A stretch of DNA of 40,794 bases, taken from sequence record PZ683264.1; one strand, 5' to 3'. The position numbers and the translations under genes were made by a program. The stretch is from a phage. Position 1 is the first letter of the stretch. Every line of letters starts with the position of its first letter. The notes beneath the pieces were generated by a model that was not told the origin of the DNA, ran no database searches, and worked only from the letters and a program-made list of their open reading frames with translations. Of the stretch, positions 37,700 through 40,227 are shown in pieces.

Positions 37700-37734
37700 C
37701 TTTGGAAAATAAAAAAGGACTCCCGAAGGAGTCC
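37700..37734 (-). terminator. Rho-independent terminator downstream of the basic-protein ORF
   Basis: ggactcc-cgaa-ggagtcc hairpin followed on the minus strand by TTTTTTATTTT. Confidence 0.7.
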
Positions 37735-37739
37735 TCAAC

Positions 37740-37958
37740 TTATGCTTTCTGCTTACCAAAACGAGAAGCATCATCTCGAAGAACCGCACGTGCTCGGCGC
37801 ATGATCTTCTCAACAGTTTGATTGATACGAGAGTTCGACCCACGCTTGTAACCAGCGCGTTTAGAATCACCAACTTTCTTTTCAACTGCTTTCTTTGCTT
37901 TAGCTTGTTTTGCCATTATAAATTCTCTTTTAAATGAAAATGCAGGACTTATTGGCAT
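37740..37958 (-). CDS. Small highly basic protein (Lys/Arg-rich), possible nucleic-acid binder
   Basis: 72 aa per track; internal start at MAKQAKAKKAVEKK (37916) also possible; followed by a terminator hairpin; my hand count of this stretch disagreed with the track frame by 1 nt. Confidence 0.5.
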   Translation of the reverse strand: MPISPAFSFKREFIMAKQAKAKKAVEKKVGDSKRAGYKRGSNSRINQTVEKIMRRARAVLRDDASRFGKQKA

Positions 37959-38312
37959 TGCCTGCGAAAGCCCTCAAGGGGTACTTAGGTTTTGAATATT
38001 TAACGACAGGATAACCATAAACCCGTCATCATACCTTATAGCTCTTATCTGTTGCACACCGTTAGCTTAAAGGTTCCGGGTTCGATTTCTCGAGGATAAG
38101 ATATATACTGATGGATATATAGGCCTTGAGGCGTACTCCCGATTGGCCATCACCTCGGGGTAGCATGCACTTGCCGCTATAAGAATAACATTCAAGAGGT
38201 ACACCATAAAACTGCCGGGGTCTTAAAACTATAATGATTCGCAAATCATTAATCAGACAGTTCGATGGCTCCTCGATTTTAGCTCACACTAAGGCAGTGA
38301 ATCTCCAATAAA
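37959..38312. other. ORF-poor ~350-bp intergenic region with several predicted stem-loops
   Basis: No ATG-initiated ORF of 60 aa or more on either strand; long-range complementarity cctcaagg (about 37971) / ccttgagg (about 38124), tcttatc (about 38043) / gataaga (about 38095), and hairpin aatgatt-cgcaa-atcatt (about 38233-38254). Confidence 0.5.
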
Positions 38313-38561
38313 TTATTTCAGTGTTACCACAAAGTGACGAACTGCTTTTCGTGCAGCAGAAGCCAAAGGCTTAGCATACTTAAGTTCATCTTTTTCCTGA
38401 AGCTCAGCAGCTAATGCAGTTTGAGCAGGATTCAGATGTTTGAAATAACGCAGGATTTCAAGAGCTTCGGCTTCAACATCAATAGATGCGCCATAGTTTT
38501 CGTGACCATTATTCCATGCGTTTCGTTGCAGTTCAAGAGCGTGTTGTAATTGTTTAATCAT
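38313..38561 (-). CDS. rIII: rIII lysis inhibition accessory protein
   Basis: 82 aa starting MIKQLQHALELQRNAWNNGHENYG; directly downstream of gene 31. Confidence 0.85.
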   Translation of the reverse strand: MIKQLQHALELQRNAWNNGHENYGASIDVEAEALEILRYFKHLNPAQTALAAELQEKDELKYAKPLASAARKAVRHFVVTLK

Positions 38562-38708: not shown

Positions 38709-39044
38709 TCACTTATAAAGACACGGAATAGCTTTATAATGACAGGTAACAAATTTTTGTTTAATTTCTTTTGGCTGCTTAAGACCCAGAGCTACAAAAG
38801 GATGCGGAACATTTCGAATTTGACCAATTGGAAGAGAAGTCAAATCACCAACTTCGCAGAAACCTTTAGGAACATCAGGACCAACAGAGTGAACTACACA
38901 CAATTCAGGAACTTCACCTTGAACACGTTTACCGATAATAAGTCCTGATTCTGTAACTTCTTCATCACCGGCTTGTGCAGGTTCAGAAACTAAAATAACA
39001 TATTCACCGACAGCACGAATTGGTAGCTGTTGTACTTCAGACAT
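38709..39044 (-). CDS. 31: gp31 co-chaperonin (GroES functional analogue)
   Basis: 111 aa starting [22 protein letters not shown]; MotA-type middle promoter upstream. Confidence 0.9.
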
Positions 39045-39409: not shown

Positions 39410-39646
39410 TTATTTACCTATTACAGTTTTAATATGAGTTGTTCCACGTTCTTTAAGAGTGGAAAGCAATTTTTGGCATTTTTCTAAATCAGATTTCCAA
39501 CTATACGGTCTATCAATACAAACCCATTCTGACTTATAATACTGCTTCCATTTAGAGAAAAAATATTTCTTATACTCTACAGCAAATGAAATGTTCTCGT
39601 TAGAATAAGAACTAATTGCTGTAAGCTGTACCAAACGAAATTTCAT
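39410..39646 (-). CDS. Hypothetical protein (31.2 position)
   Basis: 78 aa ORF, ATG start, abuts neighbours. Confidence 0.55.
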   Translation of the reverse strand: MKFRLVQLTAISSYSNENISFAVEYKKYFFSKWKQYYKSEWVCIDRPYSWKSDLEKCQKLLSTLKERGTTHIKTVIGK

Positions 39647-40227
39647 TATTCACCACAGAATTCGTTGATATTTTCCCAGTTTAACTTATTCAAGTTTTTC
39701 TTAGGAACATTAAACACTTCAATACCTGCATTTCGCAGAATATCATCCCAGCCAGGTTTATTTTTATCATATGTTTCGCAATAAACCAGCTTTTTAATTC
39801 CAGATTGGGCTATCGCTTTTGCACAATCTGGGCAAGGAGAAAGTGTTACATACATAGTAGCACCTTCAATTGAAGAACCATTTCGTGCAGCAAACAAAAT
39901 CGCATTTAGCTCAGCATGAATTTCATTTTTAGACGACCATTCAGAGTGAGCACTACGATGTTCTTTCGCCAAGACAAAACGATCAGTTGAACCAAATGAT
40001 ACGCATTCAGGCTTATGGCCTTGAATGATAGTATGTTTAGGCTTATTCAGCAACCAACCTTGCTCAGCAGCATAATCACAACAGTTCACACCCCCTGCGG
40101 GTGAACCATTATACCCAGTAGAAATAATACGTCCATTCTTTTCAATTACTGCTCCTACCTTCCAGGAGCAACATTTTGATTCCTGCGATACTAAATATGC
40201 AATTTGAAGTACTGTACTCGCTTTCAT
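39646..40227 (-). CDS. cd: dCMP deaminase
   Basis: 193 aa; zinc-binding motifs HAELNAI and PCPDCA. Confidence 0.92.
   Translation of the reverse strand: MKASTVLQIAYLVSQESKCCSWKVGAVIEKNGRIISTGYNGSPAGGVNCCDYAAEQGWLLNKPKHTIIQGHKPECVSFGSTDRFVLAKEHRSAHSEWSSKNEIHAELNAILFAARNGSSIEGATMYVTLSPCPDCAKAIAQSGIKKLVYCETYDKNKPGWDDILRNAGIEVFNVPKKNLNKLNWENINEFCGE

Follow-up and report, generated by a model that had tools for sequence, protein, structure and literature searches.

The region between rIII and 30.9

The window analysed here is a whole stretch of phage DNA of 40,794 nucleotides (PZ683264.1), in which positions 37959-38312 form the space between rIII and 30.9, both encoded on the minus strand. The rIII CDS (38313..38561) is the upstream neighbour in the direction of transcription, and the downstream neighbour is the 30.9 CDS (37740..37916), which encodes a basic protein of 58 amino acid residues belonging to phrog_1427. 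Its start is supported by cross-genus conservation, which begins at the ATG at 37916 (MAKQAK...) and not at 37958; since 30.9 is conserved only from this ATG, the non-coding stretch is probably larger and would span 37917-38312. The ORFs found in the gap are short and unconvincing: a TTG-initiated ORF (38062-38244), a 46-amino-acid ATG ORF nested in it on the minus strand (38067-38207) and three ORFs of 25-27 amino acids. The gap without credible genes reported in the preliminary description of this DNA is therefore real, and its statement that no credible ATG-initiated ORF exists holds in that none is convincing, although the nested 46-residue ORF had been overlooked.

The same description knew of no equivalent gap in T4. 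A spacer of 202 nt does separate the annotated 30.9 and rIII genes of T4, but it lacks the element described here. Alignment of both intervals, one of the checks that had been proposed, shows that the gap in the window equals the ordinary T4 spacer plus one clean insertion of about 152 nt at 38033-38185. This segment, named element E, is exactly what is missing from T4. The insertion point, between GAATGT and GGTATGATG, is a hotspot in which E, nothing or an unrelated insert of about 45-50 nt alternate. T6 and a Mosigvirus show such an unrelated insert in place of E, and the covariance model described below rejected it as an E homologue. The suggestion of a scar left by a homing endonuclease found no evidence, and no endonuclease or transposase gene is annotated adjoining E at the rIII–30.9 sites compared; the insertion point is nonetheless a real hotspot with alternating contents. 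Hallmarks of MITE or IS elements were also lacking: E is present in a single copy in the window and in each listed record, and neither a duplication at the junction between the T4 and window sequences nor terminal inverted repeats were seen.

Small modules accompany E in the spacer. Module A (37978..38034, minus strand) is a separate conserved hairpin with a probable pseudoknot that is also present in T4, T6 and Mosigvirus; its model, R2, found one copy in each of 23 Tevenvirinae loci. In this module 76.7% of the cells pair, compared with 34-54% in slid controls, and the pairs of the outer stem are compensatory. Module B is a small hairpin (GUACCCCUUGAGGGCUU; 37968..37984, minus strand), unique in the window, conserved near E in several genera and located upstream of E in Karamvirus and EcS1. 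Just before the ribosome-binding site of 30.9, a terminator-like hairpin can be seen in the sequence, GCAGG...CCUGC followed by AUUUUCAUUU (37931..37965, minus strand), which the terminator scan missed because its loop is too long, and other genera show an analogous GGGAG...CUCCC with AUGUAUUUCU. A module C-like segment (GGAGAUUCACUGCCUUAGUGUGAGCU; 38281..38306, minus strand) follows directly after the rIII stop codon; it is a diverged form of AGGUGAKUCGCUACCUUAGUGCG, a motif that JC221 and the Grimontviridae phage carry immediately downstream of E and that VR5 carries past its rIII stop codon. In Jiaodavirus, module A is upstream of E. E and modules A, B and C thus follow one another in different orders in different genera, which indicates that E is an autonomous unit bounded by its closing helix, P1.

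Structure and strand of element E

Element E is a discrete structured RNA of the minus strand with six covarying helices. The complete module, including P1, has 153 nt (38033..38185), delimited by the covariance model R1 and by its absence from T4; R1 scores it with 182 bits (E-value of 1.6e-41), and it is the sole copy in the window. P1 closes a multi-helix junction leading to hairpins P2 and P3 and to domain P4, which carries P5 and P6. The 5' strand of P1 (CUUAUAGC, 38176..38183) pairs and covaries with its 3' strand (GCUAUAAG, 38035..38042), with changes on both sides in 8 of 8 pairs across lineages, and the outer part of P1 has, genus by genus, adapted to the flanking sequence. The conserved junction after P1 (GGCAAGUGCAUGCU, 38162..38175) contains the invariant alignment columns GGCAAG.GCAUG; its GGC could pair with the GCC at 38122-38124 or take part in a local 4-bp hairpin, and covariation is seen in neither. 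P2 (38135..38161) is a hairpin of 7 bp with a bulged A followed by an inner 2-bp helix, P2b; four of the seven pairs are compensatory, for example CCCGA/UCGGG changing to CCCAA/UUGGG and CUCUA/UAGAG. The P2-P3 junction (38122..38134) shows, in the alignment, a conserved CCU and an invariant GGCC, and leads to the P3 hairpin (38102..38121), of 7 bp with the loop CCAUCA and three pairs changed on both sides (AU/UA/GC, CG/UA and AU/GC).

In domain P4, the 5' strand (UCUUAUC, 38095..38101) pairs with the 3' strand (GAUAAGA, 38043..38049), which covaries with it and is contiguous with the 3' strand of P1; six of the seven pairs show two-sided changes. The P5 hairpin (UCGA-GAAA-UCGA, 38082..38093) has a loop that varies between lineages and two-sided changes in all four pairs, with U·G intermediates on the minus strand only. 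P6 (ACCCG/CGG-U-GU) and its loop GAACCUUUAAGCUAA (38056..38081) belong to a nearly invariant ACCYGGAMCC ... GCUAACRG; one of its C-G pairs is U-A in the Pseudotevenvirus copies, and RNAalifold extends the helix to 5 bp. Junction J6/4 (GCAACA, 38050..38055) lies within the invariant columns of GUGUGCAAC. The nearly invariant nucleotides are thus found in the junctions, namely GGCAAG.GCAUG after P1, CCU..GGCCUAU before P3 and ACCYGGAMCC...GCUAACRGUGUGCAAC around P6, and the peripheral loops differ between lineages. Two candidate tertiary pairings, GGC/GCC and GCAUG/UGUGC, are invariant and hence give no covariation signal.

The alignment of E comprises 25 distinct sequences from about six lineages, a low diversity reflected in the effective sequence number of the model (1.46). 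Within it, standard pairs occupy 93.6-94.9% of the cells of P1-P6, compared with 25-41% when the partners are slid, and 26 of the 41 pairs show two-sided changes. None of 500 shuffles, a control that ignores relatedness, reached any of the five covariation measures, and RNAalifold independently recovered P1-P6 with 24 compensatory pairs. Single-sequence folding energies did not differ significantly from those of shuffled sequences (z = -1.39 for the minus and -0.98 for the plus strand). G·U cells clearly exceed A·C cells in the pairs of E (60 vs. 10), and the RNA strand is therefore the minus strand, that of the flanking genes. E showed neither a promoter nor a terminator of its own; the terminator scan detected no intrinsic terminator inside it, only terminators elsewhere, at 37715-37736 after 30.9. 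The stem-loops and long-range complementary segments of the preliminary description are accordingly real and far beyond chance by covariation, even if the single-sequence energy is not significant (z = -1.4). Among the candidates it listed, a structured small RNA is strongly supported by covariation, strand asymmetry and conservation, and the conserved structure on which this candidate depended is present in the covarying pairs P1-P6.

We rejected E as a coding sequence. No reading frame is open across the E homologues, whose lengths (136, 139, 140, 144, 145, 146 and 148) differ by non-multiples of three, so that indels break the frame; no three-base periodicity is found in the variable columns (8/12/13), and the 46-residue ORF has no match in Pfam or PHROG families. 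Hypothetical proteins are annotated over E in some GenBank records, and none of their frames is conserved between genera, so relatives do not carry conserved protein genes at this position. A gene remnant, which had also been considered, is likewise not supported, as both a conserved frame and codon periodicity are absent. A decayed tRNA fares no better. ARAGORN, run as had been recommended, predicted no tRNA genes in the whole window, and the T-arm-like string ggttccgggttcgatttc (38072..38089) is located on the plus strand, as the antisense of the P5 3' strand, J5/6 and the P6 5' strand. The RNA strand, being the minus strand, does not show this GGTTCGAATCC-like T-arm, and the resemblance is coincidental.

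Distribution, mobility and loss of element E

The search for element E gave 411 phage records, of which 396 hold 80% or more of it; each listed record has one copy. All variants score between 118 and 182 bits with R1. Most records belong to Tevenvirinae, with E at the rIII–30.9 site, which is its location in Tequatrovirus, Jiaodavirus, Kanagawavirus, Karamvirus, Muldoonvirus, phages Moon and Merlin, and EcS1. In Pseudotevenvirus and JC221 it is located between uvsY.-2 and uvsW, and in a Grimontviridae phage it follows an ssb-like gene and precedes a terminator. These three contexts are independent of one another, and E is a mobile module. The hosts of the phages belong to Escherichia, Shigella, Klebsiella, Enterobacter, Citrobacter, Serratia, Yersinia, Edwardsiella, Kosakonia and Cronobacter.

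E and its upstream gene always share a strand. By inspection, it starts about 6-30 nt past the upstream stop codon in Moon, Kosakonia 305, Pseudotevenvirus and Grimontviridae, and 127 nt beyond the rIII stop codon in the window. The identity of E between the window and Jiaodavirus or phage PEi26 is 93-96%, compared with 65-77% for rIII, 30.9, 31 and 31.1 in the same comparisons; such close agreement between genera need not mean that every base is under selection, as horizontal transfer in the recent past could also account for it.

The element has also been lost in close relatives: it is absent at the rIII–30.9 site of T4 and half-deleted in phage CT01. R1 gave no match in the first 50 kb, the tRNA region or the rIII region of T4, and blastn matched the T4T record in one place only. 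E is dispensable in T4, T6 and others. Outside phages, neither the 5,426 E. coli genomes nor the PLSDB plasmids searched with blastn contained a match, at database sizes for which matches shorter than about 20 nt go unreported. Scanning 185,579 bacterial and archaeal genomes for 18-mers turned up three matches, which are read as chance because the covariance model scores none of them. The pattern GGCAAGNGCATG...GGCCTAT was found at 28 extra viral loci, all in GC-rich coding sequence, and the model rejected all but one, a truncated true copy; a second pattern for a wider family added one chance locus.

Possible roles of element E and comparison with known RNAs

We lean, with modest confidence, towards attributing the excess length of the gap to E as an accessory, horizontally exchanged non-coding RNA that would act through its compact junction core. 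E is most likely co-transcribed with rIII, as it has no evident promoter of its own. In T4, early, middle and late promoters all serve rIII (PMC9409239), and E RNA, if transcribed with rIII, would exist throughout infection. It may be cut free of the upstream message, in whose 3' untranslated part it would lie, and work as a stable non-coding RNA, or it may work while still joined to that message; as an RNA it would fold into a compact tertiary core able to bind a specific partner, either a protein, an RNA or a small molecule. Its function would be an accessory one, which lytic phages of Enterobacterales presumably exchange horizontally and readily lose, a pattern typical of host-takeover or counter-defence modules. 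A more specific version is that E would be the first example, in T-even-type phages, of a structured accessory RNA acting in trans, and that its core captures a host factor, a tRNA or a small-molecule signal and so helps takeover or neutralises a defence; we put this forward tentatively, as a possibility on the less likely side. It is similarly doubtful, if conceivable, that a trans-acting E represents a new functional class of RNA, such as an aptamer or sponge, a decoy, or a ribozyme.

Several other readings were weighed against this accessory RNA. The one that deserves most attention, even though we consider it unlikely, is that E works purely in cis: from a 3'-UTR or intercistronic position it would stop 3'-to-5' exonucleases or direct processing by RNase E or RNase III, and so set the half-life of the upstream message (rIII, the ssb-like gene or the uvsY operon) or separate it from 30.9. 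The short distance to the upstream stop codon in four lineages agrees with it, as do the end of the transcription unit at E in Grimontviridae and Pseudotevenvirus and the constant strand of the upstream gene beside an inconsistent downstream neighbour; however, an exonuclease block needs stable helices and not some 50 nearly invariant junction nucleotides across virus families, the predicted stability of E is ordinary, and in the window 127 nt separate it from the rIII stop codon. Small ribozymes are common in intergenic, mobile settings of lytic phages, and E, a compact P1-enclosed module that is intergenic in lytic phages and horizontally mobile, has its conserved nucleotides concentrated in the junctions rather than in loops. 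That E is a new class of catalytic RNA, self-cleaving or otherwise, which would process the polycistronic transcript is still improbable, given that no ribozyme family of Rfam 15 matches the element alone even at E-values up to 10, that no cleavage site can be inferred and that about 150 nt exceeds most small self-cleaving classes.

Slightly more improbable again is a riboswitch or attenuator, in which E would be the aptamer that responds to a metabolite or signal and thereby controls the gene that follows, here 30.9. The anatomy of E is aptamer-like, with a P1-closed junction, a conserved core and a variable periphery; the Grimontviridae copy is followed by a clear intrinsic terminator and then by an ECF-like sigma-factor gene, and in Tevenvirinae hairpins and the U-rich terminator-like hairpin stand between E and 30.9. 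Against this, the downstream genes are unrelated (30.9, the sigma factor or none, the next gene in Pseudotevenvirus being convergent), the distance from E to the gene and the intervening modules vary, with module A on the other side of E in Jiaodavirus, no known riboswitch class matches, and inspection of the window found no mutually exclusive pairing between the P1 3' strand and a terminator. A regulatory role as a 5' leader, raised in the preliminary description, is unlikely because of the three unrelated contexts, the inconsistent downstream neighbours and the strand-specific G·U pairs. Conservation as DNA, whether as a recombination cassette, a protein-binding site, an origin or a mobile-element scar with an incidental RNA fold, would fit the hotspot and the movement of E between unrelated phages, but it is very improbable: pairing is kept via G·U and not A·C in a strand-specific manner, as expected for RNA and not for duplex DNA, compensatory changes occur in six helices, and E is single-copy, with neither terminal inverted repeats nor target duplications seen and no endonuclease or transposase annotated beside it at the rIII–30.9 sites. 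We give the least credence of all to E encoding a small protein, be it the 46-residue ORF or the hypothetical proteins annotated over it in several GenBank records, as the stem substitutions are compensatory and the frame, indel, periodicity and family evidence given above speaks against it.

T4 and its relatives are among the best-studied viruses. The absence of E from this locus in T4 itself may explain why it escaped notice, along with the habit of annotators to leave the gap empty or place spurious hypothetical proteins in it. E outdoes the surrounding proteins in conservation and has been transferred to an unrelated phage family; together with its presence in phages of ten host genera, this suggests that E works on something common to these hosts. 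If it were a decoy, a sponge, a ribozyme or an RNA related to tRNA or RNase P, it would add an RNA-based tool to the counter-defence and takeover repertoire of phages and a new fold to RNA biology. In practical terms, the finding allows genome annotations to be corrected, and E-plus phages of the ACG-C40/BF15 type and phages of the T4/T6 type offer natural knock-outs and near-isogenic pairs.

The Rfam search that had been recommended places E outside every family of Rfam 15 (4,227 models). No match at gathering level was found in the window; at E-values up to 10 nothing was reported over E, either in a 1.1-kb scan or with the element alone, and the JC221 copy gave noise only. A match to Atu_C8/Phe-leader was discarded as spurious, located on the terminator after 30.9. 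Full-text literature searches, including exact conserved sequence strings, found no description of E. The orphan motifs, that is, the Rfam "motif" families and the 10,006 anonymous structured-RNA candidates of Fremin, Bhatt and Kyrpides 2023 (PMC10690425), are like E in being defined by conservation and covariation alone, junction-rich and phage-borne. E differs from the Rfam motifs in having no Rfam 15 match. The main text of the 2023 article deals with elements upstream of gp20 and gp32 and not at rIII/30.9.

The rnaC and rnaD genes of T4 (species 1 and species 2 RNA) likewise correspond to non-coding RNAs of T-even phages of about 120-140 nt, and to our knowledge neither has an assigned function. 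They differ from E in their location in the tRNA cluster and, in rnaC, in a tRNA-like T-arm/acceptor segment at the end; E has no resemblance to them by eye, and R1 is silent on the T4 region containing both genes. With E. coli rnpB, E shares the 10-mer GUGCAACAGA, as well as GAACCCGG, ACCCGGA, CAAGGCC and GAUGGCC. The shared 7-mers number 11, compared with 3.2 in shuffles (p ~0.005), and the 10-mer has a p of ~0.03, both values being post hoc. The invariant E words fall in what we take to be J11/12 (CR-II), in the P4 3' strand (CR-V) and next to A248 of rnpB. RNase P RNA differs from E, which has neither the CR-I/P4 pseudoknot nor a CR-I-like segment and shows the words in another order; R1 has no match in rnpB, the Rfam RNase P models are silent on E, and the architectures are unlike, and a relationship was rejected. 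The shared words are a lead only, and the shared UGCAA might mark a T-loop-like turn. Likenesses to tmRNA PK1 and to c-di-GMP-I, noted by eye, are at chance level (8-mers), have no Rfam support and were also dismissed.

Riboswitch aptamers share with E a P1-closed multi-helix junction, a conserved core, variable peripheral hairpins and a size of about 100-150 nt, and E has the conserved, covarying domain of an aptamer. It differs from them in matching no family and in having no consistent regulated gene and no demonstrable expression platform; its position as a 5' leader is not constant, being followed by 30.9, by the ECF-like sigma factor behind a terminator or by convergent uvsW. In the Grimontviridae copy, AGAGGCUG could pair with CAGCCCCUCU, a weak possible switch pairing. 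The 3'-UTR-derived RNAs of enterobacteria resemble E in their position directly after a stop codon, and in two of its contexts E lies just before the terminator of the transcription unit. Such RNAs typically base-pair through a short seed, together with Hfq or ProQ, and have little structure beyond their terminator, whereas E, which in Tevenvirinae does without a canonical terminator of its own, is large, covarying and junction-rich.

Gene content of the rIII–30.9 gap

The window is a T4-like (Tequatrovirus) segment, and the region is 98-99% identical to phages BF15, ACG-C40 and KIT06. All genes around the gap are on the minus strand and follow, in transcription order, as cd (39646-40227), 31.2, 31.1 and 31 (38709-39044), rIII (38313-38561) directly upstream of the gap, and 30.9 (37740-37916) directly downstream of it, then 30.8. 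G+C in the gap centre is 0.46-0.47, somewhat above most of the surroundings (0.27-0.46). Comparison of 30.9 sequences indicates that the gene probably starts at ATG 37916 (58 aa, MAKQAK...) and not at 37958 (72 aa, annotated in T4T and others); conservation across genera covers the short form only, and the 42 nt upstream overlap a conserved hairpin. Because this conservation begins at ATG 37916, the non-coding stretch is probably 37917-38312. Just 3' of 30.9 there is a strong intrinsic terminator (GAGGACUCCUUCGGGAGUCCUUUUUUAU, 37715-37736, minus strand), which also produced the weak Rfam matches to Atu_C8 and Phe_leader, both spurious.

The preliminary description saw no credible ATG-initiated ORF in 37959-38312, and the ORF list, the family search and the frame and periodicity tests leave no credible gene there. 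The ORFs in the gap are the TTG-initiated one noted in that description, a nested ATG ORF of 46 aa (38067-38207, minus strand) without a Pfam or PHROG family match, and three of 25-27 aa. Conserved protein genes at this place in related phages, which would have spoken against that view, were not found: across the homologues of the structured element described below (E; ~152 nt, 38033-38185, minus strand) no reading frame stays open, lengths differ by non-multiples of three, and codon periodicity is absent from the variable positions (8/12/13). Many GenBank records annotate a hypothetical protein over E, as in Klebsiella phages Roth17, PMBT63 and 15882-x and Escherichia phages G29 and U115; since no frame is conserved, these are probably mis-annotations.

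Covarying structure of E and the accompanying modules

A six-helix model of E (P1-P6, with P1 closing the element) was built from a MAFFT alignment of 25 distinct sequences, with a diversity of about six lineages and a model effective sequence number of 1.46. In this alignment, 93.6% of the 1,021 pair cells hold standard pairs, vs 28-40% after sliding the 3' partners 1-3 columns, and 26 of the 41 pairs show changes on both sides. The observed value was not reached in any of five measures by any of 500 shuffles, a control that ignores phylogeny. A model-based alignment of 27 matches is 94.9% paired, again with 26 pairs changed on both sides, although these counts lean towards the model's structure because the alignment was fitted to it. 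RNAalifold independently recovers P1-P6 with 24 compensatory pairs. The changes include CCCGA/UCGGG to CCCAA/UUGGG and CUCUA/UAGAG in P2, UAUAUAU to UAUACAU/GUGUAUA and UAUGCAU/GUGCAUA in P3, UCGA/UCGA to CCGA/UCGG via U·G in P5, and CCG/CGG to CUG/CAG in P6, and the sequence of P1 is different in nearly every lineage. G·U cells exceed A·C cells by 60 to 10, and therefore the folded strand is the minus strand. The single-sequence folding energy is unremarkable (z = -1.4).

The near-invariant bases are located in the junctions: GGCAAG.GCAUG after P1, CCU..GGCCUAU before P3, and ACCYGGAMCC...GCUAACRGUGUGCAAC around P6 and J6/4. Of the loops, that of P5 is variable, and those of P2 and P3 partly so. 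Two additional pairings are possible, either GGC/GCC or GGCA/UGCU as a local hairpin, as is a tertiary GCAUG/UGUGC contact; all of these involve only invariant bases and so lie beyond the judgement of covariation.

E is an RNA-level, strand-specific, independently folding module, and very probably a genuine structured RNA. A structured small RNA was among the candidates of the preliminary description, and covariation, G·U asymmetry and conservation bear it out. A decayed tRNA, another of these candidates, is not supported: no tRNA was found, and the T-arm-like string (38072-38089, plus strand) is antisense to the modelled RNA, covering the 3' strand of P5, J5/6 and the 5' strand of P6.

Module A (37978-38034, minus strand) is a second conserved RNA structure, with a hairpin and a candidate pseudoknot. 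Its covariance model finds one copy per locus in 23 Tevenvirinae loci, including T4, T6 and Mosigvirus, and 76.7% of its cells pair, vs 34-54% when slid. The outer stem covaries (GAC/GUC, GGC/GCC, GUC/GAC, GUU/AAC, GUG/CAC), and pairing of the loop with downstream bases (GGUU/AACC, UAGUAGUU/AACUACUA, GUGAG/CUCAC) suggests an H-type pseudoknot. Module B (37968-37984, minus strand) is a small hairpin, GUACCCCUUGAGGGCUU, conserved across genera. Module C is the motif AGGUGAKUCGCUACCUUAGUGCG, present in diverged form at 38281-38306 (minus strand); it follows the rIII stop codon in VR5 (locus L009), as its diverged form does in T4 and the window, and stands immediately 3' of E in JC221 (L024, ~2555-2580) and in a Grimontviridae phage (L031, ~2556-2580). 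Module C and E may be parts of a larger unit. With modules A, B and C accompanying E, the spacer between rIII and 30.9 forms a small RNA-module island, in which E is the largest and best supported member.

The order of these modules relative to E differs among Tevenvirinae genera. Jiaodavirus, PEi26 and PS2 have module A upstream of E, and the window, Moon, Karamvirus and EcS1 have it on the downstream side. In Karamvirus and EcS1, module B comes right behind the stop codon of rIII and ahead of E, and it is also found downstream of E in JC221 and Kp_GWPR59. E therefore behaves as an independent cassette with its closing helix as the boundary.

Distribution and insertion site of E

A blastn search with E alone retrieved 411 phage records, 396 with at least 80% coverage, and a single place in each record listed. 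By host, 161 belong to Klebsiella, 131 to Escherichia, 27 to each of Shigella and Enterobacter, and 18 to Yersinia, with Salmonella, Citrobacter, Serratia, Raoultella, Erwinia and others as further hosts. Beyond phages, no match came from E. coli genomes, two spurious 30-nt matches from plasmids, and three 18-mer matches, all rejected by the model, from GTDB genomes. For other viruses, viral contigs scanned with relaxed motifs yielded nothing beyond chance matches in GC-rich coding sequence.

The usual site is between rIII and 30.9, in Tevenvirinae and Serratia Muldoonvirus phages. E has 93-96% identity between the window and Jiaodavirus or phage PEi26; for rIII, 30.9, 31 and 31.1 the figure is 65-77%, and the remaining spacer is unalignable. 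Yersinia phage JC221 and Pseudotevenvirus Kp_GWPR59 and JC03 have divergent full-length copies, flanked by uvsY.-2 and the convergent uvsW. Long stretches around these copies (L024, ~2200-2900, ~700 nt in JC221; L029, ~2645-2800) lack convincing genes and show several hairpins and dubious annotated short CDSs, one antisense over E. In the 76-kb Grimontviridae phage, E follows an ssb-like gene (C-terminus ...DFDDDCPF), beginning ~6 nt past its stop codon, and precedes an intrinsic terminator and then a gene for an ECF-type sigma factor. E is always on the coding strand of its neighbours. By our reading, it begins ~6-30 nt from the upstream stop codon in Moon, Kosakonia 305, Pseudotevenvirus and Grimontviridae; in the window this distance is 127 nt. 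The downstream neighbour is not conserved.

The preliminary description knew of no equivalent gap at this position in T4. A T4 spacer does exist, with 202 nt between annotated 30.9 and rIII, but the extra ~152 nt are indeed absent: by alignment, the window spacer is the T4 spacer plus a single clean insertion of ~152 nt, with junctions ...CTCTTGAATGT/TATTCTTATAGC and GCTATAAGGT/ATGATGAC... in the window and ...GAATGT/GAATGATGAC... at the T4 insertion point. Scans of T4 with the covariance model of E covered the regions around rIII and the tRNA genes and the first 50 kb, and found no copy; nor did they find one in the rIII–30.9 loci of T6, Ec_MI-02 and Mosigvirus G2285. Exactly at the E point (38033/38185), T6 (L083) and G2285 (L085) carry an unrelated insert of ~45-50 nt (TACTATCATGCGTCAGAAAAGTGTTATCTGTGTAAGTCTTGGTGG), which the model does not recognise as E; in G2285 an annotated 55-aa hypothetical protein spans it. 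In Shigella phage CT01 (L025, 1420-1577), E is half-deleted, with the 3' half kept and the 5' half and upstream spacer gone, and still scores 73.9 bits with the covariance model. Because E, nothing, an unrelated insert or a half copy occur there, the site is a hotspot and E is dispensable.

Novelty, possible function and sequence words shared with RNase P RNA

No Rfam 15 family covers E at gathering thresholds or at E-values up to 10, even with the element alone, and T4 rnaC and rnaD were ruled out as its identity. Full-text searches, exact conserved strings included, found no description of E in the searchable literature, whose scope leaves aside most subscription journals and ~1.4 million PubMed Central articles. 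A 2023 catalogue lists 10,006 anonymous viral structured-RNA candidates (PMC10690425), among which E might be present unnamed. Because no known family accommodates it, E is rated as a new RNA family.

No promoter belonging to E is evident, and Moon and Kosakonia 305 leave no room for one, so E would most likely be transcribed together with the upstream gene. Early, middle and late promoters all drive rIII in T4 (PMC9409239), and the RNA would thus be there throughout infection. Junction bases kept across virus families beside variable peripheral loops, together with horizontal transfer and easy loss, argue for more than a stable hairpin; a compact tertiary core may recognise a specific partner that Enterobacterales hosts, or these phages, have in common. 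Such a core favours an accessory non-coding RNA of the takeover or counter-defence type, working in trans or as a 3'-UTR domain, to which we incline by a little; action in trans itself is a tentative proposal.

A purely cis-acting stability or processing element would account for a position behind the upstream gene, and we regard it as unlikely. A new ribozyme is improbable. A riboswitch or attenuator is slightly more so, since the genes downstream of E are inconsistent and inspection of the window showed no expression platform. The G·U asymmetry contradicts a DNA-level element, which is very improbable, and a small protein is the least credible reading.

Sequence words shared with RNase P RNA provide a lead rather than a result. 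E and E. coli rnpB (L086:417-793, minus strand) share the 10-mer GUGCAACAGA, the 8-mer GAACCCGG, ACCCGGA, CAAGGCC and GAUGGCC, and 11 shared 7-mers compare with 3.2 in 2,000 shuffles (p ~0.005), a post hoc value obtained after by-eye comparison of several RNAs. The matching M1 segments are probably J11/12 (CR-II, the part in contact with the elbow of tRNA), the 3' strand of P4 (CR-V) and the neighbourhood of A248. No Rfam RNase P model matches E, and the architectures of the two RNAs do not match. The word sharing is at most a hint of structural motifs in common, or of a partner related to tRNA or RNase P.
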